A DNA stretch of 64,000 bases from Asterias amurensis (Eukaryota), in contig NC_092661.1 in NCBI RefSeq assembly GCF_032118995.1, positions 18,109,185-18,173,184 of the forward strand, read 5' to 3'. This document shows positions 23,622 through 61,489 of the stretch, one piece after another; positions within the stretch are counted from its first letter, which is position 1, and every line of letters starts with the position of its first letter. The notes beneath the pieces were generated by a model, which saw only the letters and a program-made list of their open reading frames with translations, ran no database searches and was not told the DNA's origin. The translations under genes and the position numbers were made by a program.

Positions 23622-24529
23622 GTAAGTAAGAGCATCAGAGCAATGAACTGACTCGATGCAGACTTAACGCACATTCAGCCTAGCCTGTATTAATTTACGT
23701 ACGGGATCAGTTGGTCAGCATGAACAACAGCGTGGTAAACTGTATTGTTGACCTGCGGTTGACCTGTCACAGCTCATGCATTCAGTTCTCGGGCATGTGT
23801 GTTTGTTTATATTTCGAAATCATCCACAGTCTTACTTATCCTTTTTTCATGCACTGCCATTGTATTTAAAGTGATTGCAATCAAATAAAAATATCAACTT
23901 GCACGAGTTATCCACTCAGCTCGTGTGTGTCTGTCCATCTGCTGTCATTGTCAAAAGTATCACAATCATCAATTCAATGTCATGAGTGACCGATCACGCT
24001 CCCTAAACATGCACCAATTACACATAATATCTGTATATTATAGGAAATAAAAACTTACCTCAACAAACAGAAATATTCAGATAAAACTAAATAATCAGTT
24101 TTTATTTTTTTGTATATGGTCACGGATGACTACAGGTAAGTGCATCATCTTTAAAATTCCTTGAAATTTATGCCTCAGAAAATGGTTTTACTTTAAAAAA
24201 AATAAAACTGTGTGGATTTATTATTATTAATTAAAGGTTGGATCATATTTATATAGTAAGAAATGTAAATTTTGTTTAAATTTTTGGACATTTGCTCAGC
24301 TCTGTCATGTCTGTGCTACATCATCAGTGAACATGATGATATTGCAAATCTTTAGCGATATTGATTATAAATGATCAGTCTGATGTCTGTAAATGGTACC
24401 TAGTGATAACCTGCTGCCATGGAGCTAAGAAGATTATTTGGAATGCTATTCCTTTTTTTCAGAACTGAAGTGTCACCTCACCAGGTCAGTTTCATTCGTG
24501 GGAGTTTGACATTCTTTTAGCATTCAACC

Positions 24530-24670
24530 ATGGCGGAGAGTTGTCCATTACCAGCGATGGACCTGCAGACTGGTCTGCCATTGGCCCAGGGGTTATATTC
24601 ACCGGAGATGGAGAAGGATGCATGTGGTGTTGGATTTATCGTCAACATTCATGGAATCAAGTCTAAGAAG
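24530..24670 (+). CDS. Glutamate synthase [NADH] (GOGAT) exon 1: MAESCPLPAMDLQTGLPLAQGLYSPEMEKDA|CGVGFIVNIHGIKSKK
   Basis: The exon begins at 24521 after 'ttttag', with ATG at 24530. Donor 'AAGAAG|gtaattcc'. Cys31 followed by GVGFI is the Ntn-amidotransferase nucleophile after a 30-aa propeptide. Phase out is 0. Confidence 0.85.
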
Positions 24671-25073
24671 GTAATTCCACCAATGAAGAAATCAAAAGAA
24701 ATCAAAGCACTTTCAAGGTCTTGACTTGAGTGTGCGCCATATTGTCCATAAGGTAGGCCTATGGTTTGTTTATTTTTGAATATCCAATGCCGTCTGTGAC
24801 TCTGTGACTGGAACTAGCTTCACACACTGTCTAGCTAGATGGCAACTAGTGTTTGAAGTATACAAATCTGTTCCATTGCTTGTTTTTGTTTTGAGTGTAT
24901 GGTTAAATGGTATCAACACATTGTACTTGTAACCTCTCCTCCCCCACCCCCACCCTCCCAAAAAAAACCACACACAAAAAAAAAAACCAAAACAAACAGA
25001 ATTTTATCGAATTTTATTGATATCATTACTGTGCTGGAAGTGCTAAGCTGCTCTATTTTGACTGTGTGTTTAG

Positions 25074-25204
25074 ATCCTTGAAGATGCATCTGTGATGTTG
25101 TGTAGGATGAAGCATAGAGGTGCGTGTAGTGGAGATAATGACACAGGGGATGGAGCAGGTGTTATGACATCGATTCCACATCAGTTATATGCGCGTGTTT
25201 TGAG
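25074..25204 (+). CDS. GOGAT exon 2: ILEDASVMLCRMKHRGACSGDNDTGDGAGVMTSIPHQLYARVL(R)
   Basis: 'tgtgtttag|ATCC' ... 'TTTTGAG|gtaaga'. It carries the conserved 'M.HRGA....DGAG'. Phase out is 2. Confidence 0.85.
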
Positions 25205-25589
25205 GTAAGATTTATATTTGAACATTGGAACCCGTTTCGCTACAGTGAACCATTATTCCATGCTATACCTTTTGCAAAAAATGTTGTTTTGGTCGATATC
25301 AGAGTCGAGGAGCGATTTCGTCCAGTAATTTATACTAATAATAGTAATAATAATTGTGGCTTTTTATATAGCGCACATGTTCGTCACCCAGTGACGCTCC
25401 TGGCGCTGTAACATACAGTATTTTCCTGCCAGATGGACTATGTTTGAATTATGAGACCTAATTCTGATAGCGCCATGTAATGCTTTACAAGGTGCCGTGG
25501 CGCAATTTGCTGCCGATCGGACCAGGAACACTGGGGCGAACCCCTTCTCTTTTCGACAAGTGCACTGGTTCTTTTACATGCGTAACTAA

Positions 25590-25955
25590 GCTTGGGCGAT
25601 ATCACGAAATTATCGAATATCGCGATATTAATTTGGACACGATTTCGATATCGGATGGATTTGGTTTTAATCAAAATATCGATATATTGCGATATATCGC
25701 GATAATCGCGATATATCGATATATCGATTAAATATCGCGGTGTATTTGCTAGCTGATACCCTATAGGTTTGGAGTAAAACCAGAAGAATAGGTCATTAGA
25801 ACACCTCTCTTATACTAGGACTGTCTCTTCTACAAATTTCACTTGGAGTTTTAAGACATGATGTCAAATTTCATTAATCGCGATTATATCGAATATCGCG
25901 ATATATTGTCGGCGATATATCGTGAATAAAATAAATCGATATCGCCCAAGCTTAT
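25590..25955. repeat. CGATAT-rich palindromic/foldback element with TIR 'aagcttgggcgatatc'
   Basis: 'aagcttgggcgatatcacgaaattatcgaatatcgcgatat...cgatatcgcccaagctt'. The interior is almost entirely (atcgcgatat)/(cgatat) motifs. It lies in GOGAT intron 2. Confidence 0.65.
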
Positions 25956-26405
25956 GCGTAACATAACATATGGGACCAACGGCTTAACGTCCCATCCAAA
26001 AGACGAAGCAATGGTTAAGTGTCATGCTTAAGGACACAAGTGTAAGATAACAAAATAATTTAATTTTTTTGGGTGCACACTGAATGCCAAATGTTGAGTA
26101 GCTAATGGCATTTTTTGACTGCTACATTTTGTGTTGCATTTTGCTCTGCTTTTACAAGGGAAATCGATAACTGATGAGTTAAATATTTGTTAATGATGGC
26201 CATTTGATGGTACTTAGTTTGAATATTGCAGCATTTATCCCAAACCATCGCTCGGGTTTGTTTGCGTTATTTTTTTAATGCATTCACTTCTACATGCTTC
26301 TACACACTAAAAAACCTCAATCTTAATTTTAGATTTGAGCCCAAAAGCCTGTTGGGAATAAGGTCAAGGCACTTGAAGGTTTCCATTTCTAATTTATTTC
26401 TGCAG

Positions 26406-26532
26406 AGATGAACTTGATATAAACCTGCCTGGACCATCCCATTATGCCACAGGGATGATCTTTTTGGACAGAGACACTGCACCACAATGCCAAAAGTTAT
26501 TCACAGACTTAGCCACACAGTGTAAACTGAAG
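26406..26532 (+). CDS. GOGAT exon 3: (R)DELDINLPGPSHYATGMIFLDRDTAPQCQKLFTDLATQCKLK
   Basis: 'tttctgcag|AGATG' ... 'ACTGAAG|gtaattta'. It matches ORF 26455. Phase out is 0. Confidence 0.85.
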
Positions 26533-27826: not shown

Positions 27827-27952
27827 ATTCTGTGCTGGCGCACTGTACCCCATGATAGTACTGTCATTGGTGAGATTGCTAAGTCCAGGGAGCCTTTCAT
27901 TCAGCAGGTTTTCATCACTGGAGACTTTGAAGGAGACGAGCTGAAAAGACAG
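27827..27952 (+). CDS. GOGAT exon 4: ILCWRTVPHDSTVIGEIAKSREPFIQQVFITGDFEGDELKRQ
   Basis: 'tgtgtag|ATTCTG' ... 'AAGACAG|gtacgtgg'. It carries the conserved 'W R.VP.....G..A...EP.I.QVF'. Confidence 0.85.
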
Positions 27953-28437: not shown

Positions 28438-28533
28438 GTGTTTTCTTTACGCAAGCAAGCAACTCACACAATTCCTAAGCATGGATACCGATTCTACATC
28501 TGCAATCTGTCTGTGGACACTGTCATTTACAAG
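28438..28533 (+). CDS. GOGAT exon 5: VFSLRKQATHTIPKHGYRFYICNLSVDTVIYK
   Basis: 'aaaacag|GTGTTT' ... 'TTACAAG|gtaaga'. It carries the conserved 'FY.CSLS..T.VYKG'. Confidence 0.85.
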
Positions 28534-29036
28534 GTAAGAATTATCCTTGAATTTTTTCTAAAAGAACATTCATCATATCGGTTTAAATGCCGTTACAGAA
28601 TTGGTTAGAAAAAAATGTGTCTAAGATCACAGATTTACATGAAACTTAACACAGTCTAATGATGATAGTAGAAAACATCTCTTGAAATATTTCTGTCTGA
28701 ATGTCATATTTGAGGAAAAATGAAAGCACATACAAATCCTCTTGGATAAACCTTTGCTCCATCATGTTTATTTCATCCTTATACAAGTCCCTAGTTAATC
28801 ATTATAATTACGCCATGCCTGAGCCATTGACTACGTCAATTCTTCATCTAATATAATTACTTCGCTCCATGGGAATGCAGTACAAAAACATGGCCTCGTT
28901 ATGTAAACATTATCTTATACTATTTCACTCCGCAGTTATTCATTTGTACTTATATGATATGCACCACCTTGCCTTTAATTTGGTTAAGTAAGAAAATTTA
29001 TTTATTAACCTAACACAATGTTGATAAAATGGTCTT

Positions 29037-29424
29037 AAAGGCGATGGACACTATTGGTAATTGTCAAAGACTAGCCCTCACAGTTGGTGTATCTTAACAT
29101 ATGCATAAAATAACAAACCTGTGAAAATTTGAGCTCAATCGGTCATCGAACTTGTGAGATAATAATGAAAGAACAAGCACCCTATAGTCACACGAAGTTG
29201 TGTGCGTGTAGATGGTTGATTTCAAGACATCAAGTTCTAAATCTGAGGTCTCGAAATCAAATTCGTGGAAAATTACTTCTTTCTCGAAAACTATGGCACT
29301 TCAGAGGGAGTCGTTTCTCACAATGTTTTATTACCATCAACCTCTCCCCATTACTCGTCACCAAGAAAGGTTTTATGCTAATAATTATTTTGAGTAATTA
29401 CCAATAGTGTCCACTGCCTTTAAT
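29037..29424. mobile_element. MITE family A copy (GOGAT intron 5)
   Basis: 'aaaggcgatggacactattggtaattgtcaaagact...attaccaatagtgtccactgcctttaat'. It carries the spurious ORFs 29129..29407 and 29212..29397. Confidence 0.75.
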
Positions 29425-33114: not shown

Positions 33115-33251
33115 GGGATGTTAACTCCAAGTCAGCTGTTTGAGTATTTCACTGATTTTAAGGAGCCTGACTATGAAACACACTTTGCCCATGTTCACAG
33201 TCGATTCTCTACAAATACATTCCCTAGTTGGGAAAGAGCACATCCAATGCG
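33115..33251 (+). CDS. GOGAT exon 6: [45 protein letters not shown](R)
   Basis: 'taacactag|GGGATG' ... 'CAATGCG|gtaggt'. It carries the hallmark '[15 protein letters not shown]'. Phase out is 2. Confidence 0.9.
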
Positions 33252-33850: not shown

Positions 33851-34055
33851 ATACATATCCCACAATGGGGAAATTAACTCCCTACGTGGGAACAGTAACC
33901 TGATGCATGCTCGTGAGGGTGTTATGAATAGTACAGTGTATGGAGACAAGCTGAAACGTCTCTACCCTGTGGTTGAAGAGAAGATGTCAGACTCTGGGCA
34001 GTTTGATAATGTCCTGGAGTTCTTGATCATGGCAGGTGGAAGAACACTTCCAGAG
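33851..34055 (+). CDS. GOGAT exon 7: (R)YISHNGEINSLRGNSNLMHAREGVMNSTVYGDKLKRLYPVVEEKMSDSGQFDNVLEFLIMAGGRTLPE
   Basis: 'aaacactcag|ATACAT' ... 'TTCCAGAG|gtacag'. It carries 'HNGEINT.RGN.NWM.ARE'. Confidence 0.9.
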
Positions 34056-35800: not shown

Positions 35801-35912
35801 GCCATAATGACTATGGTTCCTGAGGCATGGCAGAATGATCATCTCATGAATCAAGACAAGAGAGATTTCTATCAGTGGGCTGCGTTTGCCATGGAGCCGT
35901 GGGATGGACCTG
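35801..35912 (+). CDS. GOGAT exon 8: AIMTMVPEAWQNDHLMNQDKRDFYQWAAFAMEPWDGP
   Basis: 'ttgattttag|GCCATA' ... 'GGACCTG|gtatgtta'. Phase out is 1. Confidence 0.9.
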
Positions 35913-36224: not shown

Positions 36225-36379
36225 CTCTCTTCACATTCTCTGATGGTCGTTACATCGGTGCTATTCTGGACAGGAATGGTCTACGTCCATCTCGTTACTG
36301 TATTACTAAGTCTGGCTTCATGATCATGGCCAGTGAGGTCGGTGTAGTGGATATCCCACACACTGATGTAGCGCAGAAG
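36225..36379 (+). CDS. GOGAT exon 9: (A)[51 protein letters not shown]
   Basis: 'ctctaattgtag|CTCTC' ... 'GCAGAAG|gtaagatgg'. It carries 'DRNGLRP.RY'. Confidence 0.9.
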
Positions 36380-36819: not shown

Positions 36820-37097
36820 GGTCGGTTGAAGCCTGGTCGTATGCTGTTAGTGGACACTGTCATTGGTGAGGTCACCAAAGATGAGGAGTTAAAAAGAGGA
36901 ATTGCTCAGCAGCGCCCAGTGAGCAAATGGTTACGAGAGCAGGTCATCACACTGCCAGACCTCTACAATGTACACAAGCAAGAGGTCATGAGTAATGGGG
37001 AAGATAGCTTGTCTGTGCAGACGGACCATCGCCTGCCCATGTTTGGCTACAGTGTGGAACACCTTAATATGCTTATCGTTCCTATCATCAAAAATAA
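36820..37097 (+). CDS. GOGAT exon 10: GRLKPGRMLLVDTVIGEVTKDEELKRGIAQQRPVSKWLREQVITLPDLYNVHKQ…VEHLNMLIVPIIKN(K)
   Basis: 'atccaaccag|GGTCGG'. The donor 'AAAAATAA|gtaagag' is placed before the in-frame TAA, which would otherwise terminate ORF 36826..37101. Phase out is 2. Confidence 0.8.
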
Positions 37098-37189: not shown

Positions 37190-37780
37190 TGACATCCTAA
37201 ACGTTAGATAATGACATCCTGATGGAGGGGCTTATCTCAGGATGACGACAGCTTGAAAGTAGAATGTTGTCTTCCTAATTATCTTGGGTTCTTGACATTT
37301 CCAGGATTATCATCCCATGATAATGGATGTCATCATAATGTCTTCATCCTGAGATATCTTGGGTTCTTAAAGGCCAAGTCACGCTGCAGCGATAACGAAA
37401 ACGATAACGATCACAACGCAAAGAGAACGCATTCTATTGGTTAAATTGCTCCACGCAGAATTTGCACACGCGCAATAGAATGCGTTTTCTTTGCGTCATC
37501 ATAATTTTCATTATCCCTGCAATGTGACTCGGCCTGAACACTTCCAGGGTTATCATCACATGATGAATTATCTTGGCAAGTCAACGTCTTATGTTTCAGG
37601 ATTTCCTCATCCTGAGATATTTCATATCGGATGTCAACATCTTACTTTCAAGATGGCAACATCCTAAGATGAAATATATCAGGAAGATGACATCTTACTT
37701 CAGGATGTTGTCATCCCAAGATATATATCATCTTGGGATGTTGACATCTTACATCCATTATGTGGTCATGATGCAGTAAA
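37190..37780. repeat. Degenerate ~24-bp minisatellite ('gatgacatcctaa…', 'aagatg(g/t)caacatcctaagatg…') in GOGAT intron 10
   Basis: It contains many direct and inverted recurrences of 'gatg(a/t)catc(c/a)t(a/g)a…atcttgggttcttaa'. It also embeds the hairpin MITE at 37370..37530. Confidence 0.55.
37370..37530. mobile_element. Hairpin MITE family F
   Basis: 'aaggccaagtcacgctgcagcgataacgaaaacgataacga…ttctattggttaaattgctccacgcagaatt…gcaatagaatgcgttttctttgcgtcatcat…ctgcaatgtgactcggcct' is a perfect long-stem palindrome. The second copy is at 63043..63215. Confidence 0.65.
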
Positions 37781-38029: not shown

Positions 38030-38180
38030 GAAAGAGCCCCTTGGATCCATGGGAAATGACATTCCCCTAGCCTGTCTGTCAGAGCGGAATCCTCTGGTGT
38101 TTGAGTACTTCAAGCAACTGTTTGCCCAGGTTACCAACCCGCCCATTGATCCCATCAGGGAACACATTGTCATGTCACTG
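38030..38180 (+). CDS. GOGAT exon 11: (K)[50 protein letters not shown]
   Basis: 'ttacttcag|GAAAGAG' ... 'GTCACTG|gtatgttg'. It carries 'GSMGND.PLA.LS' and '[12 protein letters not shown]'. Confidence 0.9.
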
Positions 38181-38206
38181 GTATGTTGTATATTAGATAG
38201 CACATT

Positions 38207-38571
38207 AAAGGCACTGGACACTAATGGTAATTACTCAAAATAATTACTAGCATAAAAACTTACTTGGTAACGAGCAATGGAGAGCTGTTGATAGTGTCAA
38301 ACATTGTGAGAAACTGCTCCCTCAGAAGTAACATAGTTTTTGAGAAAGAGGTAATTTCTCACTCAAATAATAAAAGACTTTAGCTGAAGCGTTTTATTAA
38401 GCATCTGAAAGCGCACAATTTGTGCAACAAGGGTGTTTTTTTGTTTATTATTCTCTTGCAACTTCGATGACCAATCGAGTAAAACTTTCACAGGTTTGCT
38501 ATTTGATGCATATGTTGGGATACACCAAGTGAGAATACTGGTCTTTGACAATTACCAAAGGTGTCCAGCCG
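38207..38571. mobile_element. MITE family A copy (GOGAT intron 11)
   Basis: 'aaaggcactggacactaatggtaattactc…attaccaaaggtgtccagccgtt'. Confidence 0.7.
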
Positions 38572-38574
38572 TTG

Positions 38575-39429: not shown

Positions 39430-40075
39430 GTATAAACCAGTGTTGTAGCCATGGTGGGCGGTGCTGGGCGGTTCTGCCCAGAACTAACAAATTTGGCCCA
39501 GCACTCTGAGCAAAATACACTGTGCTGCCCAACACAGATTTCCTCCAGATTGCACTTCAGTAATGATGGCCCCATACACAGATGTATACGATTAGTCGTC
39601 AGTGTTGTAGCCACGGTGGGCGGTACTGGGCAGGGTCTGCCCAGAACTAACAAATTTGGCCCAGCACTCTGAGCAAAATACACTGTGCTGCCCAACACAG
39701 ATTTCCTCCAGATTGCACTTCAGTAATGATGGCCCCATACACAGATGTATACGATTAGTCGTCAGTGTTGTAGCCACGGTGGGCGGTACTGGGCAGGGTC
39801 TGCCCAGAACTAACAAATTTGGCCCAGCACTCTGAGCAAAATACACTGCGCTGCCCAACACAGATTTCCTCCAGATTGCACTTCAGTAATGATGGCCCCA
39901 TACACAGATGTATACGATTAGTCGTCAGTGTTGTAGCCACGGTGGGCGGTACCGGGCAGGGTCTGCCCAGAACTAACAAATTTGGCCCAGCACTCTGAGC
40001 AAAATACACTGTGCTGCCCAGCACAGATTTCCCCCACATTGCACTTCAATAATGATGGCCCCATTTCTAACATGA
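39430..40075. repeat. Satellite-like tandem array, unit ~163 bp x ~4 (GOGAT intron 11)
   Basis: Unit 'gtgttgtagccacggtgggcggtactgggcagggtctgcccagaactaacaaatttggcccagcactctgagcaaaatacactgtgctgcccaacacagatttcctccagattgcacttcagtaatgatggccccatacacagatgtatacgattagtcgtca' recurs at ~39441, 39604, 39767 and 39930. It generates the repeated minus-strand ORFs 39378..40039. Confidence 0.8.
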
Positions 40076-40758: not shown

Positions 40759-40893
40759 GCATGTCCCATTGGCCCAGAGAGTAATATTCTTGAGCCAAGT
40801 GAGCTCCAATGCAAGAGGCTTTTTTTGGACATGCCCATCCTTTCTCTAGATGACCTGGTAGTTATCAAGGCAACAACATTCAGAGGATGGAAG
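40759..40893 (+). CDS. GOGAT exon 12: [45 protein letters not shown]
   Basis: 'ttgtttctatag|GCATGT' ... 'GGATGGAAG|gtgagga'. Phase in and phase out are both 0. Confidence 0.85.
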
Positions 40894-41565: not shown

Positions 41566-41726
41566 ACTAAAACAATTGACATAACTTTCCCCATCACATC
41601 TGGTTGCTCTGGTCTTGTACCTGCGCTTGAGCGAGTGTGTAGTGAGTGTTCTAAAGCTGTAGATGATGGCTATACACTGCTGGTGCTGTCTGATAGAAAC
41701 GCTGGCAGAGAACATGTTCCAGTCAG
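41566..41726 (+). CDS. GOGAT exon 13: TKTIDITFPITSGCSGLVPALERVCSECSKAVDDGYTLLVLSDRNAGREHVPV(S)
   Basis: 'tttgatcaccag|ACTAAA' ... 'CAGTCAG|gtaggt'. The minus-strand ORF 41419..42000 covering it is antisense noise. Phase out is 2. Confidence 0.8.
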
Positions 41727-42467: not shown

Positions 42468-42777
42468 TTCCGCGTTGGCTCTTGGAGCAACCCATCACCA
42501 TCTGATCAAGACTCGACAACGTCTCCGCGTCGGCCTGATCGTAGAGACGGGTGAAGCCAGAGAGATGCACCACATGTGTTTGCTCCTTGGCTATGGTGCC
42601 GATGCCATCTGCCCATACCTGGTCTATGAGAGCGTACAGAGTCTAAGGGATCAGAACCTACTAGGTGAAGAGGTCTTCACTGATGAAGAGATTGCTTTGA
42701 GATTCAAGAGTGCCACAGCTAAGGGGATTGCTAAGGTCATGGCTAAGATGGGAATCTCCACACTGCATAGCTATAAG
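42468..42777 (+). CDS. GOGAT exon 14: (S)SALALGATHHHLIKTRQRLRVGLIVETGEAREMHHMCLLLGYGADAICPYLVYESVQSLRDQ…KVMAKMGISTLHSYK
   Basis: 'tcgttgtttag|TTCCGCG' ... 'CTATAAG|gtaatag'. It matches ORF 42433. It carries 'AVHHHL' and 'GYGA.AI.PYL'. Confidence 0.9.
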
Positions 42778-43301: not shown

Positions 43302-43412
43302 GGAGCTCAAATATTTGAAGCTGTAGGCCTTTGTCAAGAAGTGGTTGATAAATGTTTCCTCGGTACTGCATCTAGATTGGGCGGTGCTACGTTTCAAGTG
43401 TTGGCTGAAGAG
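43302..43412 (+). CDS. GOGAT exon 15: [37 protein letters not shown]
   Basis: 'tctttctttag|GGAGCT' ... 'GCTGAAGAG|gtgagc'. It carries the conserved 'GAQIFEA.GL'. Confidence 0.9.
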
Positions 43413-44246: not shown

Positions 44247-44444
44247 GCTCTGCAACGTCACTTCATAGCCTACTCAGATCGGGATGGTGACATCATCACA
44301 AGTTTGGAGCCTGGACAATACCATTGGCGCAGTGGGGGTGAAAAGCACATCAATGACCCCACCAGTGTGGCTAATCTACAAGAAGCTACCCGCAACAAGA
44401 GTCAAACGGCCTATGATAAATTTAGAGAGTCCCAGGAAGCTGTG
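44247..44444 (+). CDS. GOGAT exon 16: ALQRHFIAYSDRDGDIITSLEPGQYHWRSGGEKHINDPTSVANLQEATRNKSQTAYDKFRESQEAV
   Basis: 'ttatccatcag|GCTCTG' ... 'GAAGCTGTG|gtaaacc'. It carries 'G.YHWR.GGE.H'. Confidence 0.85.
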
Positions 44445-44900: not shown

Positions 44901-45073
44901 ATCAGAGACTGTACCCTGAGGGGTCAGCTTGACCTTCAGATGGCCTCTACTCCTCTTGATCTCTCTCTGGTTGAAGACGCTACCAGCATCGTCAAACGAT
45001 TCGTCACTGGTGCTATGAGCTTTGGAAGTCTGTCTATTGAGACACACACAACACTTGCACGTGCCATGAACAA
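44901..45073 (+). CDS. GOGAT exon 17: [57 protein letters not shown](K)
   Basis: 'cactccccag|ATCAGA'. The donor 'AACAA|gtaagag' is placed before the in-frame TAA. Phase out is 2. It carries 'F.TGAMS.GS.S.E.H..LA.AMN'. Confidence 0.85.
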
Positions 45074-45820: not shown

Positions 45821-46034
45821 AATTGGGGGTAAGAGCAATACAGGAGAAGGTGGCGAGTCTGAAAACCGTTACATCAGCAATGATCCTAGCAACAGTACAC
45901 GATCAGCCATCAAGCAGGTTGCTTCAGGTCGGTTTGGAGTCACTAGCTCCTACCTGGCACATGCTGATGAGTTACAGATCAAGATGGCGCAGGGAGCAAA
46001 GCCAGGTGAAGGGGGAGAGCTCCCGGGATATAAG
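45821..46034 (+). CDS. GOGAT exon 18: (K)[71 protein letters not shown]
   Basis: 'tttttttttactaag|AATTGG' ... 'GGATATAAG|gtactt'. The frame agrees with ORF 45984. It carries the FMN-domain hallmarks 'KSNTGEGGE' and '[18 protein letters not shown]'. Confidence 0.9.
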
Positions 46035-46545: not shown

Positions 46546-46746
46546 GTGTCTGAAGACATTGCCAAGACTCGATCATCCATCCCAGGTGTAGGGCTAGTCT
46601 CCCCGCCTCCTCATCATGACATTTACTCCATTGAGGACCTTGCAGAGCTCATCTACAACTTGAAGTGTTCCAACCCTGAGGCTAGGATCAGTGTCAAGCT
46701 AGTGTCGGAGGTCGGTGTTGGGGTCATCGCTGCCGGAGTTGCCAAG
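46546..46746 (+). CDS. GOGAT exon 19: [67 protein letters not shown]
   Basis: 'gatttctcaag|GTGTCT' ... 'GTTGCCAAG|gtaaacc'. It carries '[14 protein letters not shown]'. Confidence 0.9.
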
Positions 46747-47303: not shown

Positions 47304-47484
47304 GGTCTAGCTGAACACATTACCATCTCTGGCCATGATGGTGGCACAGGAGCTAGCACCTGGACAGGGATCAAGCATGCAGGGCTACCGTGGGAACTAG
47401 GTCTCTCAGAAACACACCAGACGCTGGTACTGAATGACCTCAGGTCAAGGGTCAAAGTGCAGACTGATGGGCAGCTCCGAACTG
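47304..47484 (+). CDS. GOGAT exon 20: [60 protein letters not shown](G)
   Basis: 'gatttacacag|GGTCTA' ... 'CGAACTG|gtaggg'. It carries '[11 protein letters not shown]' and 'G.PWELGL'. Phase out is 1. Confidence 0.9.
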
Positions 47485-47547: not shown

Positions 47548-47778
47548 CGATATAGAAAGGTTTGCGGTAACACCATGTAATGACTATCTCTAAGAGAGAT
47601 ACCAAGCTAATGCGCCTCCACAGTACTTAAGCAGCATGCAGCATCAGAGTCCAGCTTTCTCCAGAAGACGATTAGAGCATACTGATTGAAACGTCGAGTT
47701 GAAACCAACGGTTCTTTTCAGAACCACCCCAACTCATTAGAGATAGTCATTACATGGTGTTACCGCAAACCTTTCTAT
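47548..47778. mobile_element. Palindromic MITE family G, full copy (TIR 'GGTTTGCGGTAACACCATGTAATGACTATCTC')
   Basis: 'aggtttgcggtaacaccatgtaatgactatctctaagagag…ctcattagagatagtcattacatggtgttaccgcaaaccttt'. Fragments lie at 14758..14900 and 50826..50945. Confidence 0.7.
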
Positions 47779-48239
47779 ATCTAATAATATTGTTTAATTC
47801 AAAACTAAACCTTTCCTCCAACTGGACTGGATGACACTTGAAAAAAAAAAGATTTGATTGAGGCACCTTATATCCCGATCCTCACAGAAATTTTAAAAAT
47901 TAGTGACAAGCAAAACTGGAAGTGAAAATATAATTCAATTTTTGGGTGACAAAGAAAAGTTTCCTGCAGCTTCTGGAATAATGTGCTGGTGCTCTACCAA
48001 CTAAGCAGTAAAGCTCTAATGATGCTTGTACTCCCTGTTGTGTCAATATCTTTGTTCCCGGGCTGCCAGTCAGACGCCATTCAACCTTTAACTGACGTGT
48101 AGCTAGGGATCTTGTCCAAGTTCACAAATCAACCTGGGAAGCGGCAAGAGAGGGATCACTTTCAGGGGATGCAACTTTTTATTTCAAAAGTCAGTAATAA
48201 ATCACAAGGGACACTGACTTGGTAAATTAACATCTATTA

Positions 48240-48478
48240 CATCGTTGCGGTACCCGCTACTAAAAGCATAATATTCGAACAGCCTCTAGCTACTGGGCAA
48301 TCTCGGCGGTCTAGTTGGTAAGACACTACTCTAAATTTGCAAAGGTTGTGGGTTCGAATCCCCCCCAAGTTATATGGCAAGAATTTTTGTTCACAGGACC
48401 CTGGAAAGCACAGCGTGTGTATAATGTACAAACCTAAATTAACAGTCCTGATCCCTGATGCAAATTGACCATCTATTA
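48240..48478 (+). mobile_element. tRNA-derived SINE (family S1) ending ~30 nt upstream of the exon 21 acceptor
   Basis: The tRNA-like head is 'ggcggtctagttggtaagacactactctaaatttgcaaaggttgtgggttcgaatccccccc', with D-arm and T-arm boxes. The tail '…ccctgatgcaaattgaccatctat' matches the copy at 52594. The flanking 'catctatta' is repeated at both ends and may be a target-site duplication. Confidence 0.65.
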
Positions 48479-48508: not shown

Positions 48509-48642
48509 GTCGTGATGTGGTAATAGCAGCTCTCCTTGGTGCTGATGAGTTTGCTTTCTCTACAACACCTCTTATTGCCCTTGGATGCATCATGATGAGA
48601 AAATGCCATCTTAATACTTGCCCTGTGGGTGTGGCAACGCAG
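48509..48642 (+). CDS. GOGAT exon 21: (G)[44 protein letters not shown]
   Basis: 'ttttgtgtgtag|GTCGTG' ... 'GCAACGCAG|gttagagc'. It matches ORF 48490. It carries 'CH.NTCPVG'. Confidence 0.9.
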
Positions 48643-48829: not shown

Positions 48830-49114
48830 GATCCAGAATTGCGAAAGAAGTTTGACGGTGAGCCAGAACACGTCATCAACTACTTCTTCATGCTCGCCGA
48901 GGAGGTTCGTCAACTCATGGCCCAGCTGGGCTTCCGTAGCTTCCAGGAGATGATCGGACGCACAGACAAACTCAAGGCATCGGAGCAGCCAGCCAATGAG
49001 AAGTGTCGTATGCTGGATTTCAGCAGGATCTTACAGCGAGCTGATGAGATGAGGGTAGGGGTGAATATCATCGGAGGGAGTAAAGAGCAAAATTTCAATC
49101 TGGGAAACAGATTG
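48830..49114 (+). CDS. GOGAT exon 22: DPELRKKFDGEPEHVINYFFMLAEEVRQLMAQLGFRSFQEMIGRTDKLK…NIIGGSKEQNFNLGNRL
   Basis: 'gtgattcaag|GATCCA' ... 'AACAGATTG|gtaagtta'. It carries the conserved 'QDPELR.KF.G.PEHV.N'. Confidence 0.9.
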
Positions 49115-49807: not shown

Positions 49808-49932
49808 GACAATAAATTGATAGAGGCAGCCCAAGATGTATTGGACGGCAAGAAGGATAGTGTATCTCTAGAGATGGACATTACTAGTCAGAGCAGAGCG
49901 TTTGCCACAACTCTCAGCTTCGAAATCGCTAA
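49808..49932 (+). CDS. GOGAT exon 23: DNKLIEAAQDVLDGKKDSVSLEMDITSQSRAFATTLSFEIA(K)
   Basis: 'ttattttggacag|GACAAT' ... 'ATCGCTAA|gtaagata'. Phase out is 2. Confidence 0.8.
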
Positions 49933-50401
49933 GTAAGATATCAAATCACCAACTACATCCTAGGACAAATAATTATTATCTTTTGGTACCCTTTAATGGT
50001 CTCCAATTTTAGAAGTGAGAAAAATGAGGCAAAGGGCCAGACTTCAAGATATCCAAGTAGATTTCAAGAAGAAAAAACATTACATTTTTATTTAATTTTC
50101 TTGGTGATGGTTTGAAAAATTGACTTTAGTGCTACTCTAGTGTTAATTTTGCATCCACTGAAGTTGGTTACCTACAAGTTGCCTCATACGACACAGCCCT
50201 TAAGTCAACATATGTAAACTCTAAATGTTGAACCCCCAAATACAAAGTAAAAAGTAGTCAATGATTATTAGTTTTTAGATGATTTTAAGTTTGAAGCCAA
50301 ACAAACTTTGTATTTGATAACATCTGGAAATCAACAATGTTTTACCCAAAGTAGAAATCAATATTCACTAGATCTTAACATGTGTTTAAATTTCAGCAAT
50401 T

Positions 50402-50751
50402 TTAAAGGCACCGGACACATTTGGTAATTGTCAAAGACCAGTATTCTCACTTGGTGCATCCCAACATATGCATAAAAAAACAAACCTGTGAAAATTTTGA
50501 CTCAAATGGTCACCAAAGTTGCAAGAGAATAATGAAAGTAAAAAACCCAACTTTGTGTGCTTTCAAATGCATAATACAAGGCTTTAGCTTATTTGATTGA
50601 GATTAACTCTCTCAAAAAAAAACAAAGTTACTTCAGATAGAGCCGTTTCTCACAATTTTGTATACTATCAACAGCTTCCCTTTGCTCGTCACCAAGTAAG
50701 TTTTGTGCTAACAATTATTTTGAGTAATTAACAGAAGTGTCTAGTGCCTTT
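50402..50751. mobile_element. MITE family A copy (GOGAT intron 23)
   Basis: 'aaaggcaccggacacatttggtaattgtcaaagacc…attaacagaagtgtctagtgcctttaaa'. Confidence 0.65.
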
Positions 50752-51012
50752 AAAAGGAATCTTATATAAGAAGCTTTATCAAAAGTTGTTTTAATTTGTA
50801 TTGTTGCAAGGGAGACCATACTTACAGTATGGAAAAGTTTGCGGTAACACCATGTAATTACTATCTTTAATGAGTTGGGGTGGTTCTGAAAAGAATCGTT
50901 GGCTTCAGCTCGACGTTTCGATCAGTTTGCTCTGATCGTCTGAGACTTACACTGTCTGTATTTACCCCTAAACCATCTTCTATTTCTTTGTTTTAATCGT
51001 GTGTTGTATTAG

Positions 51013-51151
51013 GAGGTTCTGTGAGACTGGTTTACCAGAGAAGTCAATCCAGATTAAGTTGAAAGGTTCTGGGGGTCAGAGTTTCTGTGCGTTTCTCTCC
51101 CATGGTGTCTATGTTGAATTAGAAGGAGATTCTAATGACTATGTTGGCAAG
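51013..51151 (+). CDS. GOGAT exon 24: (K)[46 protein letters not shown]
   Basis: 'gtgttgtattag|GAGGTTC' ... 'GTTGGCAAG|gtaatatac'. It carries the GXGXG-domain 'G.AGQSFGAFL..G…L.GDANDY'. Confidence 0.9.
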
Positions 51152-51779: not shown

Positions 51780-51965
51780 GGTCTATCAGGAGGCACAGTT
51801 ATCGTCTATCCACCCAAAGATTTACCCTCGGACTTCAAAACGGAAGATAACATCATCGTAGGCAATGTGTGTCTGTATGGAGCTACTAGGGGGACGGCTT
51901 ACTTTAGAGGTGTAGCTGCTGAGAGATTCTGTGTACGCAACTCTGGAGCTACTGCTGTGTGTGAA
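51780..51965 (+). CDS. GOGAT exon 25: [62 protein letters not shown]
   Basis: 'cctctgaag|GGTCTA' ... 'GTGTGTGAA|gtaagg'. Next comes GVGNHGCEY, exactly as in GOGAT '[22 protein letters not shown]'. Confidence 0.85.
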
Positions 51966-52048
51966 GTAAGGGACATATCATTACTTCAACCAATTTAATT
52001 CACAATGTTTTTACTTTAACTGTGCTGTAGCCATTTTTATCATGACAT

Positions 52049-52423
52049 TAAAGGCAGTGGAAACTGTTGGTAATTACTCAAAATAATTAGCATAAAACCT
52101 TAACAGGGAGAGGTTGACAGTGTAAAACATTGTGAGAAACAGCTCCCTCTGAAGTGACATTCATGTAGTTATCGAGAAAGAAGTAATTTTCCACGAATTT
52201 GATTTCGAGACCTTAAATTTAGAATTTGAGGTCTCAAAATCAACCATCTAAAAGCACACAGCTTCGTGTGACAAGGGTGCTTTTTTCTTTCGTTATTATA
52301 TTGCAACTTTGACGGCCAATTGAGCTCAAATTTTCACAGGTTTGTTATTTTATGCATATGTTGAGATACACCAAGTGAGAAGGCTGGTCTTTGACAATTA
52401 CCAATAGTGTCCAATGTCTTTAG
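52049..52423. mobile_element. MITE family A copy (GOGAT intron 25)
   Basis: 'aaaggcagtggaaactgttggtaattactc…attaccaatagtgtccaatgtctttag'. Confidence 0.7.
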
Positions 52424-52593
52424 ATGATGACATTTCAGTTGGTAACAACGGTTAACTTGCATCTAAACAAGCATGATTTGTTCAATTGTTCAATTTTATT
52501 TAGCTTTATTAGGTAAAGTTATTGGTTGATTAATAATGAGTAGTTATTGATATGAGTATTTAGTCAGCGTAATTAAATGTATCATTGGTGGTC

Positions 52594-52783
52594 TATTTGG
52601 TATGACACTGCTCTACAATTGCAAAGATCGTGGGTTCAAATCCCACCCGAGTAATATGCCTGTGTTTTTTTGTTTTCACAGAACTCTGGGGAAAGTACTG
52701 AGTATACAGTGCTAACACACATCGGTTTATATGGGTAAAACCAAAATGAATATTTTTATCCCCGATGCAAATTTAACATCTAT
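52594..52783 (+). mobile_element. tRNA-derived SINE (family S1) flanked by a 9-bp direct repeat 'atcattggt', ending ~30 nt before the exon 26 acceptor
   Basis: The head is 'ggtctatttggtatgacactgctctacaattgcaaagatcgtgggttcaaatcccacc' and the tail is '…ccccgatgcaaatttaacatctat'. The direct repeat lies at 52585-52593 and 52783-52791, consistent with a target-site duplication. Confidence 0.7.
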
Positions 52784-52816: not shown

Positions 52817-52932
52817 GGTGTTGGTAACCATGGTTGTGAATACATGACGGGTGGGCGGGCCATCATTCTTGGACCCACTGGATGTAACTTTGCTGCTGGC
52901 ATGTCTGGAGGTATTGCTTATGTCTTGGATAG
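52817..52932 (+). CDS. GOGAT exon 26: [38 protein letters not shown](R)
   Basis: 'tttatgtgtag|GGTGTT' ... 'TTGGATAG|gtaaattt'. Phase out is 2. Confidence 0.9.
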
Positions 52933-53596: not shown

Positions 53597-53774
53597 ATCG
53601 GGAAACTTTCCCGTTCTGTGCAACAAGGAATCAGTAACGCTCCGACCTGTCTGCAAGACCATTGATGTTACATTCATTAAGGAGCAACTCAAGAACTTTG
53701 TTGAATTGACGGGGTCTGAGGTTGCCTCAAGAATACTCGCAAACTGGGAGGAAGAAGTGAAATATTTTGTAAAG
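53597..53774 (+). CDS. GOGAT exon 27: (R)SGNFPVLCNKESVTLRPVCKTIDVTFIKEQLKNFVELTGSEVASRILANWEEEVKYFVK
   Basis: 'ttttctgtag|ATCGGG' ... 'TTTGTAAAG|gtaagtttt'. It is in frame with ORF 53544. Confidence 0.85.
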
Positions 53775-54487: not shown

Positions 54488-54729
54488 GTCTTCCCCAATG
54501 AGTACAGACGGGCCCTGATCAAGATCAAAGAAGAAACCCTTGCCAAGCAGATGGAGTCATCAGACCAAGTGGTTCCCAATGGATTCACCAATCAAACTGA
54601 CCCAATTGAGTTGAATGAAGGGAAACCAACCAATGGGAAGACAGAACCCAAAGTGATTGACATTGAAGATGCTGTACCTGATGCTGAAGTGGATAAAAGG
54701 AACATGGACAAGATTCTGGACAAAACAAG
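54488..54729 (+). CDS. GOGAT exon 28: VFPNEYRRALIKIKEETLAKQMESSDQVVPNGFTNQTDPIELNEGKPTNGKTEPKVIDIEDAVPDAEVDKRNMDKILDKT(R)
   Basis: 'tgcatttag|GTCTTC' ... 'AAAACAAG|gtaggac'. The ORF 54551 frame is kept. Phase out is 2. It includes a species-specific acidic linker. Confidence 0.85.
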
Positions 54730-55265: not shown

Positions 55266-55388
55266 GGGATTTGTGAAATACAAGAGGAACAATCAGCAAT
55301 ATCGGAAGGTGTCTGTTCGTATGAAAGACTGGAATGAGATTTATGATCATAAAGGAGTCAGGAAGGAACTTCGCACTCAGGCAGCAAG
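55266..55388 (+). CDS. GOGAT exon 29: (R)GFVKYKRNNQQYRKVSVRMKDWNEIYDHKGVRKELRTQAA(R)
   Basis: 'tttgttttcag|GGGATTT' ... 'GCAGCAAG|gtatataac'. It opens the small-subunit-like module ('RGF.KY.R'). Confidence 0.85.
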
Positions 55389-55602: not shown

Positions 55603-55780
55603 GTGTATGGACTGTGGCACCCCCTTCTGCCAGGGGCATACAGGCTGCCCACTTGGTAATATCATCCCATCTTGGAATGACCTCATATTCAAAGGTCAAT
55701 GGAGGGATGCCCTGGAGAGGTTAGAGGTCACCAATAACTTTCCTGAGTTTACTGGAAGGTGTTGCCCTGCACCATGTGAG
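55603..55780 (+). CDS. GOGAT exon 30: (R)[59 protein letters not shown]
   Basis: 'tatcttttgtag|GTGTATG' ... 'CCATGTGAG|gtaggatt'. It carries the Fe-S cluster motifs 'CMDCGTPFC' and 'CPAPCE'. Confidence 0.9.
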
Positions 55781-55805
55781 GTAGGATTACTATCATAACA
55801 TATGT

Positions 55806-56454: not shown

Positions 56455-56730
56455 GGAGCCTGCGTCTTGGGTATCAATGCACCTGCAGTAACAATCAAGA
56501 ACATTGAGAATGCCATTATTGACCATGCGTTTGAGCAAGGATGGATGAAGCCTCGTCCACCAGCGTTCCGCACTGGGAAGATAGTTGCTGTGGTTGGGAG
56601 CGGACCAGCTGGCCTTGCAGCAGCAGCTCAGCTTAATAAAGCTGGTCACCTTGTGACAGTGTATGAGAGAAGTGATCGGATTGGTGGATTGTTGATGTAT
56701 GGGATTCCATCAATGAAACTCAGTAAAGCG
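56455..56730 (+). CDS. GOGAT exon 31: [92 protein letters not shown]
   Basis: 'ccatatatcag|GGAGCC' ... 'AGTAAAGCG|gtaagttc'. It matches ORF 56389. It carries the Rossmann motif '[14 protein letters not shown]' and 'GIP..KL'. Confidence 0.9.
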
Positions 56731-57668: not shown

Positions 57669-57828
57669 GTTGTACAGCGTCGTGTTGATCTAATGCGTGA
57701 TGAAGGTGTCGTGTTTGTCACTAATGCAAATGTGGGGGACACAGTTAGCCCAAAACAGCTACTGGAAAATCATGATGCGTTGCTGCTCTGTACGGGATCA
57801 ACGCGTCCTAGAGATCTACCCATCAAAG
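57669..57828 (+). CDS. GOGAT exon 32: VVQRRVDLMRDEGVVFVTNANVGDTVSPKQLLENHDALLLCTGSTRPRDLPIK(G)
   Basis: 'gatgcatcag|GTTGTA' ... 'ATCAAAG|gtaataac'. Phase out is 1. Confidence 0.85.
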
Positions 57829-58421
57829 GTAATAACATTTTCAAAATAATGGGCCATAAAAGATATATCTTTAGCACTTTGTTTTTATTAATTAAAGTTT
57901 ACTGTATTGTTGAGTGATGGCTTTTTCAGATTTGTTGTTGGAGGTTGGCAAACATTTGGGAATCAAAGACGATCTTGGTCTGCCTCACAATTCTTTCTTG
58001 AACAGAAAATAAATGGGATTCTAAAAAAGTGAAAAGATCCTGGCAATGTTTTCTGTAATTTTAAGACCTACATGTTTCAGAAGTTCTTACTGTCATTGGG
58101 GAGTCGAACTCAAGCTCTGGTGTTTCTGATCAGCAGAGTGTGGGTTCAAGTTTCAGTTTTGGCATTTGTGTTTGTTTGCGGCTTGCTAGACAAATAAAGA
58201 ACACAGTTAGATTTATCCTAAATAGAGACATGGTTTGTTCCTATGTTTCTTGCATGGATGGCAGCAGAATGCACCACAACACCTTGTAAATTCCTTTGAG
58301 GTGCTACATAAATGTACATGTAGGTGTCATAATACACAATCTTAGCCAACACTGCCATAAACATTTCTCCACCTCAGAATATTGGCACATCATAAATGTT
58401 TCTTGTTGTCATTTTGATCAG

Positions 58422-58585
58422 GTCGCAATCTTGATGGAATCCACTTTGCCATGGATTTCTTAGGGGCATGGCAGAAGCGTCAGATGGGCAACGATAATGT
58501 CTTCTTAGATGCCAAAGACAAGGATATTATCATCATAGGGGGAGGTGACACTGGCGTTGACTGCATAGGAACCTCACTGCGTATG
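58422..58585 (+). CDS. GOGAT exon 33: (G)RNLDGIHFAMDFLGAWQKRQMGNDNVFLDAKDKDIIIIGGGDTGVDCIGTSLRM
   Basis: 'attttgatcag|GTCGCA' ... 'CTGCGTATG|gtaagctac'. It carries the second dinucleotide-binding motif 'IGGGDTG.DCIGTS'. Confidence 0.85.
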
Positions 58586-59333
58586 GTAAGCTACCCTCAA
58601 AGGTTTAGTACCGAATTAGTTTCATCGTCAAGTCGTTTTGCTATGTGTGCACACCAAAATGTGGATTTCCACTTGGATTGCTTTTAATTCTGTGAGATGA
58701 CGATCAAATTAAAATAAGTAACTATTCAAAAACAGTTTCAACAAAAAATGAACATACAATTTTAAATCTTCACAAGTCCCTTGGTTATTTTGTTCATTGG
58801 AACATGATTATTGGAATGAATTCATTTCTCCCAAAACTATGCTTAAATGTACATATACTTTTTGATAAAGAGGTTCTTTTTTTTAATTTGGTATACATGT
58901 ATTTCTTTCAAAACAAGTCTTTTAAAGCCATTGGTGACTTTCGGTAAACAGTATTTTCCAAAGGCCCACACTACGTGTATCACAACTTATATATAAAATA
59001 ACAAACCTGTGAAAAAAAGGCTCAATCGGTCATCGGAGTAGGGAGAAAATAATGGGAAAACCCACCCTTGTTTACACACGTTTCTCCGTGTCATGACATG
59101 TGTTTAAAATAAATCCGTAATTCTCGATATCGAGAATTGATAATTGTTTAATGTTTTCTCAAAAAGTAAAGCGTTTCATGGAATAATATTTCAAGAGAGG
59201 TCTTTCACCATTACCTGCTGTAAACCCTGTAGGTTATTTGTAAATCTGTGATTTATTATTTTTTTTACTGTTCCGAAAGTGTCCAATGGCTTTAAGTCAA
59301 CATTTATTTTGATGTGCATATTTCTGTCCTCAG

Positions 59334-59501
59334 AATGCAAGAAGTATAACTACTTTTGAGATACTCTCCGAGCCACCGCCCACAAGGGCCAAGAGCAACC
59401 CTTGGCCAACATGGCCTCGTGTTCTGAGGTTTGATTATGGTCATGATGAGGTGAAGCTCAAACACGGACATGACCCAAGGAACTTTGATATTCTTAGTGA
59501 G
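59334..59501 (+). CDS. GOGAT exon 34: NARSITTFEILSEPPPTRAKSNPWPTWPRVLRFDYGHDEVKLKHGHDPRNFDILSE
   Basis: 'tttctgtcctcag|AATGCA' ... 'CTTAGTGAG|gtaagaaag'. It carries 'NPWP.WPR.FR.DYGH.EV'. Its junction with exon 33 gives 'RM|NA' where many homologues have 'RHGA', so it is slightly less certain. Confidence 0.75.
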
Positions 59502-59622
59502 GTAAGAAAGTTTTTCACTTTCAAAACTGTTATCAGTTATCATGGCCAGAGTGGTTGCAAACGCAAAATAGTTTAACCTCCAGAAATCAAGGTGAATGTA
59601 GGAACTTTGTCTTACTTCATAT

Positions 59623-59900
59623 AAAGGCAATAGACACTTAAAATTACTCATAATAATTGTTAGCATTAAAACTTACGTGGTAACGCACAATGGAGAGCTG
59701 TTGATTGTACAAAACATTGTGAGAAACGGCTCCCTCTGAAGTAACTTAGTTTTTGAGAAAGGTAATAATCTCACTCAAATAATAAAAGACTTCAGCTGAA
59801 GCCTTTTATTATGCATCTGAAAGCACACAAAGTAATGCAACGAAGGAATTTTTTCTTTCATTATTCTCTTGCAAGTTTGATGACCAAATTTGCTTCTCCT
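59623..59900. mobile_element. MITE family A copy, truncated (GOGAT intron 34)
   Basis: 'aaaggcaatagacacttaaaattactcataataattgttagcat…' lacks the right terminal inverted repeat. Confidence 0.55.
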
Positions 59901-60161
59901 CATTGAACCCAAGTCTCGACACTCATGGGGTGACAGGTCTTTTTCTGTAGCCGCGCCACGCATCTGGAACTCTCTACCACTTAATCTTCAATCTTGTCTT
60001 TGTACCGCAAAATTCAAGTCTCTTCTCAAAACTTATCTTATGTCACAGGTTTTCAATGACTAATTTTGTTGTGTCTGTTTTTCTTTGTGTTGTGTTTTTG
60101 TTTTGTTTTGTTTTGGTTTACTGCGCCTTGAACACCCAGCAGGGTGGATATGTGCGCATTA

Positions 60162-60167
60162 CAAGTC

Positions 60168-60234
<67 letters not shown>
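60162..60234. repeat. (ATT)n microsatellite, ~25 units
   Basis: 'ttattattattatt…' is a perfect array, which yields the poly-Ile ORF 60056..60274. Confidence 0.95.
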
Positions 60235-60238
<4 letters not shown>

Positions 60239-60341
60239 TACGAAGCGTGTCCTGTGCCTTTAAAGAAGCTATGACATAGATAAGCTCTTGTTGTTTTTAA
60301 GTCCAATGAAACTCACTGATTTCACTTTCCATGTTGTGTAG

Positions 60342-60612
60342 GAATTTCTTGATGATGGCAATGGTAATGTCTCTGGCATCCGTACCTGCCAAGTGGAATG
60401 GAAACGTGACTCAACTGGCCGCTATTCCATGGAGAAGATTCCAGGCTCAGAAAAGACATTTAAAGCAGACTTGGTTTTCTTAGCCATGGGTTTCCTTGGA
60501 CCTGAAGACAGGATCGTCACTCAGCTTGGTCTGGATCAGGACCCAAGAGCCAATATTGCATCACAACCTGGCAAATATAGGACCAGTAGCCCACGGATTT
60601 ATACAGCTGGAG
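60342..60612 (+). CDS. GOGAT exon 35: EFLDDGNGNVSGIRTCQVEWKRDSTGRYSMEKIPGSEKTFKADLVFLAMGFLGPEDRIVTQLGLDQDPRANIASQPGKYRTSSPRIYTAG(D)
   Basis: 'atgttgtgtag|GAATTT' ... 'GCTGGAG|gtaagattg'. It matches ORF 60393. It carries 'ADLV.LAMGF.GPE'. Phase out is 1. Confidence 0.85.
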
Positions 60613-60652
60613 GTAAGATTGATTTTATGTTATTGAAGCTACCCTTTTCTCT

Positions 60653-61037
60653 TTAAAGGCAGTGGACACTATTGGTAATTACTCAAAATAATTATTAGCA
60701 TAAAACCTTACTTGGTAACGAGTAATGGGGAGAGGTTGGTAGTATAAAACATTGTGAGAAACGGCTCCCTTTGAAGTGGCGTAGTTTTCGAGAAAGAAGT
60801 AATTTTCCACGAATTTGATTTCGAGACCTCAGATTTAGAACTTGAGGTCTTGAAATCAAGCATCTGAAAGCACACAACTCCTTGTGACAAGGGTGTTTTT
60901 TCTTTCATTGTTGTCTCGCAACTTCGACGACCGATTGAGCTCAAATTTTCACAAGTTTGTTATTGTAAGCATATGTTGAGGTACACCAAGTGAGAAGACT
61001 GGTCTTTGACAATTACCAATAGTCTCCAGTGTTTTTA
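60653..61037. mobile_element. MITE family A copy (GOGAT intron 35)
   Basis: 'aaaggcagtggacactattggtaattactc…attaccaatagtctccagtgtttttaaag'. It carries the spurious ORFs 60695..60877 and 60708..60944. Confidence 0.75.
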
Positions 61038-61286
61038 AAGCATGCAAAGGTAAAACAATGAAAGCTAAATGTTTTTATGTTATTTATTTCTAATTAGAGG
61101 ACAAATACTATGGACAAAGTTGCCATTATGCTCTTTTAACAAAAAACTATGAATAACAAAATATATTTTTGTACATTTCTGTAAGTTCAAAAAATTGATA
61201 GAGTCAGGAATAAAAGTGTTGCTATAAGGAGGTTATAATTTTATGAACAAATTCATATATATTTTTTTTCCTCATCCATTTGTCAG

Positions 61287-61489
61287 ATTGTCACCGTGGT
61301 CAGTCCCTTGTCGTCCATGCAATCAATGAGGGCCGGCAAGCTGCTCGTGAGGTCGATTTGGATCTGATGGGTCACACCTCCCTCGCTGGACCCGGAGGGG
61401 TGGTGTTCACCCCTGGTGTAAAAATTGGTAAGCCCAAGTCTGGAGCGGGAATCAAAAACCAGCAGCAGGTTGTTGAATGTGTCGCTTGA
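61287..61489 (+). CDS. GOGAT exon 36 (terminal): (D)CHRGQSLVVHAINEGRQAAREVDLDLMGHTSLAGPGGVVFTPGVKIGKPKSGAGIKNQQQVVECVA*
   Basis: 'catttgtcag|ATTGTC' gives G+AT=Asp. The stop TGA is at 61487-61489. It carries 'AGDC.RGQSLVV.AI.EGRQAAR.VD'. Confidence 0.9.

Follow-up and report, generated by a model that had tools for sequence, protein, structure and literature searches.

The window analyzed here, a 64,000-nucleotide stretch of the Asterias amurensis genome (NC_092661.1, positions 18,109,185 to 18,173,184), carries a complete gene for glutamate synthase (GOGAT). On the plus strand, the coding sequence runs from an ATG at window position 24530 to a TGA ending at 61489 and is divided among 36 exons. 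Its 6291 nt correspond to 2096 codons without an internal stop; the exon phases are consistent, and 35 of 35 introns are bounded by GT-AG. We hold with high confidence that this locus is a single-copy nuclear gene for a fused, pyridine-nucleotide-dependent GOGAT, ancestral to animals and vertically inherited.

The gene was initially mapped by tblastn of Escherichia coli GltB and GltD (from NC_000913.3) against the window, which returned collinear plus-strand matches from 24.6 to 61.3 kb. Used as a query, a rough concatenation of the matched pieces recovered animal glutamate synthases of full length; the top match was a 2096-residue protein from Asterias rubens named "putative glutamate synthase [NADPH]." When aligned back to the window by tblastn, the A. 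rubens protein gave exactly 36 collinear high-scoring segment pairs between 24530 and 61486 (83–100% identity), with no missing or extra exons, frame breaks, or premature stops. Each junction was then refined by trying candidate GT or GC donors with AG acceptors, the spliced peptide being scored by its match to the A. rubens protein. The translated model is identical over all 2096 residues to RefSeq XP_071801388.1, an A. amurensis "uncharacterized protein" found by exact-sequence look-up, and matches A. rubens XP_033635249.1 at 2071 of 2096 residues (98.8%) without gaps. Given this exact identity and the exon refinement, the 36 exons, 2096 codons, and consistent phases proposed in a preliminary description of the window are correct. 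Its start coordinate of 24521 misses the coding start by 9 nt; however, 24521 is the first base after an acceptor-like TTTTAG located 9 nt before the ATG. A first coding exon beginning there, with 9 nt of 5′ untranslated region (UTR) and an upstream UTR intron, is therefore plausible.

Six Pfam domains were detected along the protein, with E-values from 4e-168 to 3e-20. The amidotransferase domain, GATase_2 (PF00310), spans residues 32–447 (E 4e-168). Exon 1 (24530–24670, residues 1–47) contains the ATG, the predicted 31-residue propeptide, and the catalytic Cys32 within the motif CGVGF. GATase_2 continues in exon 2 (25074–25204, residues 48–91) and on through exon 3 (26406–26532, 91–133), exon 4 (27827–27952, 134–175), exon 5 (28438–28533, 176–207), which precedes the longest intron (4581 nt), exon 6 (33115–33251, 208–253), exon 7 (33851–34055, 253–321), exon 8 (35801–35912, 322–359), and exon 9 (36225–36379, 359–410). 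It ends in exon 10 (36820–37097, 411–503), where Glu_syn_central (PF04898, residues 482–765) begins. This central domain occupies exon 11 (38030–38180, 503–553) and is followed through exon 12 (40759–40893, 554–598), exon 13 (41566–41726, 599–652), exon 14, the largest (42468–42777, 652–755), and exon 15 (43302–43412, 756–792). The FMN domain, Glu_synthase (PF01645, residues 828–1194), starts in exon 16 (44247–44444, 793–858) and extends over exon 17 (44901–45073, 859–916), exon 18 (45821–46034, 916–987), exon 19 (46546–46746, 988–1054), exon 20 (47304–47484, 1055–1115), exon 21 (48509–48642, 1115–1159), which encodes the 3Fe-4S cysteines C1141, C1147, and C1152, and exon 22 (48830–49114, 1160–1254).

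The GXGXG domain (PF01493), the C-terminal β-helix of the alpha part, covers residues 1278–1463 (E 2e-77). It begins in exon 23 (49808–49932, 1255–1296) and is followed through exon 24 (51013–51151, 1296–1342), exon 25 (51780–51965, 1343–1404), exon 26 (52817–52932, 1405–1443), and exon 27 (53597–53774, 1443–1502). Exon 28 (54488–54729, 1503–1583) encodes a linker of low conservation that separates the GltB-like part from the GltD-like part. An uninterrupted open reading frame (ORF) across exons 28–30 joins the two, such that the GltD-like reductase is fused in the same polypeptide. Fer4_20 (PF14691) spans residues 1603–1712, and Pyr_redox_2 (PF07992) spans residues 1727–2045. The GltD-like part continues through exon 29 (55266–55388, 1583–1624), exon 30 (55603–55780, 1624–1683), with the Fe-S motifs up to CPAPCE, exon 31 (56455–56730, 1684–1775), with the remaining GAC and the FAD site, exon 32 (57669–57828, 1776–1829), exon 33 (58422–58585, 1829–1883), with the NAD(P)H site, exon 34 (59334–59501, 1884–1939), with Glu1892 at the end of Rossmann strand β2, exon 35 (60342–60612, 1940–2030), and exon 36 (61287–61489, 2030–2096 plus the TGA).

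All modules and cofactor motifs of a fused eukaryotic GOGAT are present, and the claim that every catalytic module can be found in this gene is borne out by Pfam, by the motifs, and by alignment to E. coli GltB and GltD. Cys32 aligns with the catalytic Cys of E. coli GltB and with residue 1 of the mature chains in 1EA0 and 1LLW, and cleavage of a 31-residue propeptide before Cys32 is expected. The preliminary description had correctly placed this cysteine after a propeptide but counted 30 residues rather than 31. A C-x5-CH-x3-C motif at 1141–1152 aligns with the E. coli 3Fe-4S sequence CKYLRICHLNNC. Further Fe-S cysteine motifs lie at 1625–1640 and 1678–1686 (CPAPCEGAC), the FAD site is at 1731–1740, and the NAD(P)H site is at 1868–1875 (GGGDTG at 1868).

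Comparison with characterized systems places the protein among the fused animal enzymes. Those of Acanthaster, Branchiostoma, Owenia, Pocillopora, and insects are 2040–2130 residues long, share the same Pfam architecture, and are 62–86% identical to the sea star protein. E. coli GltB plus GltD is 41% identical over 1931 aligned positions, with Cys1, the 3Fe-4S and Fe-S motifs, and both GxGxxG sites in register. Bacterial NADPH-GOGATs (E. coli; Bacillus subtilis, 7MFM; Azospirillum, 2VDC/6S6S) have all domains in common with the sea star protein but consist of two polypeptides, whereas the animal enzyme is one and has an additional non-conserved linker of ~100 residues (approximately residues 1500–1600). 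Ferredoxin-dependent GOGAT (Fd-GOGAT; Synechocystis, 1LLW/1OFD) matches the GltB-like part (residues 32–1505) at E = 0 but lacks the GltD-like reductase that the sea star protein has at residues 1583–2065; that region matches solved GltD chains (E 2e-159). Among solved structures, the nearest are the bacterial two-subunit enzymes 7MFM (E = 0), 6S6S, 2VDC, and 1EA0 and the Fd-GOGAT 1LLW; the matches included no fused eukaryotic GOGAT chain.

Established GOGAT enzymology, taken together with motif conservation, suggests how the protein would work. Removal of the 31-residue propeptide would expose Cys32 of the Ntn-type (class-II) amidotransferase domain, which would hydrolyze glutamine, with the ammonia channeled to the FMN/3Fe-4S domain. 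There, ammonia would be added to 2-oxoglutarate, and the resulting iminoglutarate would be reduced by electrons that NAD(P)H donates and that arrive via FAD and the two 4Fe-4S clusters of the GltD-like region at the C-terminus, for a net yield of two glutamates per glutamine. From the intact motifs and the purifying selection described below, we infer that the enzyme catalyzes this reaction (glutamine + 2-oxoglutarate + NAD(P)H to 2 glutamate). In partnership with glutamine synthetase (GS), it could allow the animal to re-assimilate ammonium.

Exon structure, which the preliminary description considered worth recording, was compiled over six animal genes. Proteins from A. rubens, Acanthaster planci, Branchiostoma floridae (amphioxus), Owenia fusiformis (annelid), and Pocillopora verrucosa (coral) were mapped exactly onto their own loci, and intron positions and phases were projected onto the protein alignment along with those of the window. 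The genes differ in intron number. Both A. rubens and A. planci have 35 introns and share all 35 with the window, and the 36 exon lengths in A. rubens are identical to those found here. Amphioxus has 38 introns, 29 of them common to the window's 35; the corresponding figures are 42 and 30 for the annelid and 60 and 34 for the coral. Each of the 35 window introns has a counterpart of the same position and phase in amphioxus, the annelid, or the coral, and none is unique to sea stars among the six genes. Because every intron has such a counterpart outside echinoderms, the sea star gene derives by intron loss from a eumetazoan ancestor rich in introns, with no detectable gain. The map cleanly supports an ancient origin and vertical inheritance of animal GOGAT. 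It also accounts for exon boundaries that fall within domain hallmarks. The junction AVCE|GVGNHGCEY, pointed out in the preliminary description, is real (exon 25/26, 51965|52817, phase 0), and a second motif is split at CPAPCE|GAC (exon 30/31). Both boundaries occur in all six genes and are therefore ancient; in a motif-dense protein interrupted by 35 introns, such coincidences call for no particular explanation.

Two incidental features were seen in the compared genes. In the B. floridae locus (L004, ~37253–37294), a partial duplicate of a GOGAT exon start (SEKTFQTKC...) lies within the intron, ~200 bp upstream of the true exon. In O. fusiformis (L010, 52880–62900), a 22-kb GOGAT intron nests three called genes on the opposite strand with VWA domains.

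GOGAT is best known from bacteria, plants, and fungi, which raises the question of microbial contamination or recent horizontal transfer into the sea star genome. A 375-residue query seemed to point the same way, as it returned only fragments of up to 655 residues, mostly bacterial or metagenomic, at 38–47% identity. This result probably reflects the short query, since a ~1500-residue query recovered full-length animal proteins. The window as a whole is eukaryotic DNA and AT-rich (30–47% GC). From ~14.4 to 63.7 kb, the window aligns with the 18-Mb A. rubens chromosome LR699102.1, including introns and intergenic DNA, at roughly 87–98% nucleotide identity (mostly 91–95%). Non-coding DNA differs between the two loci by ~2–13% (mostly 5–9%), with several indels. 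Animal genes, including a homolog of AHR, lie alongside. The 35 spliceosomal introns match those of amphioxus, annelid, and coral genes in position and phase, and the same ~390-bp repeats occur in GOGAT introns, in the flanks, and at the A. rubens locus.

The phylogeny agrees. A neighbor-joining tree, built from 20 animal GOGATs with E. coli as the root (2047 columns, 200 bootstraps), gave support of 100 for the Asterias pair, Asteroidea, Echinodermata, and Cnidaria, 99 for Lophotrochozoa, 84 for Ambulacraria, 82 for Arthropoda, and 65 for Deuterostomia. The gene tree follows the animal species tree, with E. coli as a distant outgroup at 41% identity. On the strength of the shared introns, the repeats, synteny, and the tree, contamination and recent transfer were rejected, and we regard either as exceedingly improbable. 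The native origin asserted in the preliminary description is upheld, as is its observation of native repeats alongside the gene. The rejection covers recent events; a transfer predating animals is beyond the reach of these sequences.

The RefSeq label "uncharacterized protein" and the absence of the enzyme from vertebrates might suggest a decaying pseudogene, in which GOGAT-like exons persist without a working product. These two circumstances are all that raise the idea, and no direct support for it was found. The 6291 nt are free of stops and frameshifts, splice sites are canonical at 35 of 35 introns, and the catalytic and cofactor motifs are all intact. Relative to A. rubens, the coding sequence differs at 103 of 6291 nt, with 78 synonymous and 25 non-synonymous differences (Nei-Gojobori). 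The resulting dS of 0.057 and dN of 0.0052 give a dN/dS of 0.09, reflecting strong purifying selection; GOGAT is therefore not a pseudogene. The possibility of a decayed locus was rejected on the basis of ORF, splice sites, motifs, and dN/dS, and we assign it a negligible probability.

Against the assignment as a whole weigh several points. For A. amurensis, expression and enzyme activity are predictions from the sequence. The gene model spans the ATG to the stop codon. The tree comprises animal sequences and E. coli. Consequently, "ancestral to animals" is to be understood from shared introns and a congruent tree across animals, not from a full eukaryote phylogeny. The remaining two points concern the nucleotide cofactor, the preference for which is suggested solely by a conserved Glu1892 (FEIL) in place of the E. 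coli YRR, and which RefSeq gives as NADPH in its name for the A. rubens ortholog.

In Rossmann folds, an acidic residue at the end of the second strand favors NADH, while arginines favor NADPH. All five animal sequences inspected have F-E-[IV]-L at this position (5/5), with Glu1892 (FEIL) in the sea star, whereas the E. coli NADPH enzyme has Y-R-R. Because the conserved glutamate replaces the Arg-Arg of the bacterial enzyme, NADH would be the favored cofactor of sea star GOGAT. An NADPH-dependent enzyme (EC 1.4.1.13-like) would be consistent with the RefSeq name "putative glutamate synthase [NADPH]" of the A. rubens ortholog and with the closest solved structures, all of which are NADPH enzymes. 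The characterized fused eukaryotic GOGATs of yeast, plants, and silkworm use NADH, which counts against this alternative. NADH consumption is also what the cnidarian host assay measures (PMC10620218). We therefore consider NADPH dependence unlikely, although it merits more weight than the alternatives above, and tentatively favor NADH.

Sea star GOGAT is an ordinary, already known gene, with a model in RefSeq and orthologs annotated in most invertebrate phyla. Full-length orthologs were retrieved from asteroids, echinoids, holothurians, and crinoids (four echinoderm classes), hemichordates, and amphioxus; from gastropods, bivalves, annelids, brachiopods, nemerteans, and corals; and from every major arthropod group, with chelicerates, myriapods, crustaceans, and insects represented. 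Because these span most invertebrate groups, GOGAT is widespread in invertebrates, and its characterization as "patchy in Metazoa" in the preliminary description is an overstatement. To our knowledge, GOGAT is absent from vertebrates. No vertebrate was present among the homolog matches listed, although no search was aimed at vertebrates. A study of how amino-acid pathways were lost (PMC3287585) makes no mention of GOGAT. Fused NADH-GOGAT has been recorded in animals and fungi, with an early eukaryotic origin inferred (PMC5775586). Expression and enzyme activity of host GS-GOGAT have been studied in depth in cnidarian symbiosis (PMC3931562, PMC10620218), and host GOGAT has been shown to be active there and to contribute to ammonium re-assimilation (PMC10620218). 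GOGAT also features in work on insect nitrogen recycling (e.g., PMC6027869). Given the RefSeq model and this literature, the finding is already known; its practical consequence is that the A. amurensis product now called "uncharacterized protein" in RefSeq can safely be renamed glutamate synthase.

Beyond GOGAT itself, we examined its genomic neighborhood. The preliminary description had named an AHR homolog as the adjoining gene. The homolog is present, but a two-exon minus-strand gene that had been missed lies between it and GOGAT (22716–22302 and 22166–21586, 331 residues). The two genes stand head-to-head, with 1.8 kb between their start codons. The encoded protein is 100% identical to an A. 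amurensis "uncharacterized protein," and no Pfam domain was found in the ORF. In a profile search over 1.84 billion representatives, the family amounted to only 296 clusters at 50% identity. Its named members belong to echinoderms, insects, molluscs, a brachiopod, an annelid, sea anemones, a jellyfish, and the ichthyosporean Chromosphaera, and all of those seen are labeled uncharacterized or hypothetical or have names that look borrowed (two sea-slug entries and one planthopper entry). The insect members contain two copies of a conserved ~190-residue domain. By its sequence matches, the neighbor belongs to an uncharacterized holozoan family.

The head-to-head pairing with GOGAT recurs in A. 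rubens, Acanthaster, the brachiopod Lingula, and the annelid Owenia (tblastn E 1e-36). The family members of oyster and Plakobranchus show no such arrangement nearby, and none was seen in the 2-kb GOGAT flank of amphioxus or Pocillopora. Between the two sea star genes, a CpG-rich intergenic stretch (22500–23750) has a GC content of 40–46% and a CpG observed/expected ratio (o/e) of ~1.0, compared with a median o/e of 0.445 for the window. This composition would be consistent with a shared, unmethylated, and possibly bidirectional promoter. The conserved pairing may stem from a functional link or only from regulatory constraint on a bidirectional promoter. As a lead for invertebrate nitrogen metabolism, it is only mildly novel but a cheap one.

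The window begins inside the AHR homolog and holds only its 3′ part. The C-terminal portion of the PAS-B domain is encoded at 6414–6593 on the plus strand (E 1e-15 to human and mouse AHR chains). A long terminal exon rich in Q, P, and S follows at 9653–11842 (plus strand), with a 27-nt repeat encoding PPGFPAGG at 9782–9877; the C-terminal exon had no Pfam match. A (CAA)n microsatellite lies after the homolog, at 12259–12428.

The ~390-bp interspersed repeat is present in at least 10 copies in both orientations, within GOGAT introns 5, 11, 23, 25, 34, and 35 and in the flanks. Copies are located at 4824–5213, 6811–7192, 13511–13885, 14993–15393, 29032–29424, 38202–38568, 50388–50754, 52045–52435, 59622–59894, and 60643–61055. 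The A. rubens locus also contains multiple copies, at 78–92% identity. GOGAT intron 2 includes a ~0.7-kb stretch (~25300–26000) with no counterpart at the A. rubens locus. Its CpG o/e (1.7–2.0) is the highest in the window, ATCGCGATAT-type motifs are abundant in it, and its ends are inverted (of the form GCGTAAC..AAGCTTGGGCGATATC). These features make it look like a species-specific insertion resembling a miniature inverted-repeat transposable element.

Rfam searches returned tRNA matches at 52582–52654 (plus strand, 42.7 bits, intron 25) and 48300–48372 (plus strand, 29.3 bits, intron 20). The acceptor stem of the former is mismatched, and ARAGORN called no tRNA genes in the window. Both are probably heads of tRNA-derived short interspersed elements or decayed tRNA genes. 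Matches to the histone 3′ UTR stem-loop were found at 14790–14835 (minus strand) and 47705–47750 (plus strand), each at 35.7 bits with a gathering threshold of 34. They sit within copies of a short repeat (14759–14875 and 47666–47781) and most likely represent a repeat-borne hairpin rather than histone genes. A tandem array in GOGAT intron 11 (39438–40064) consists of 3.9 copies of a 163-bp unit at 97% identity, and further tandem duplications are found at 40–295 (129-bp unit) and 8943–9317 (140-bp unit).

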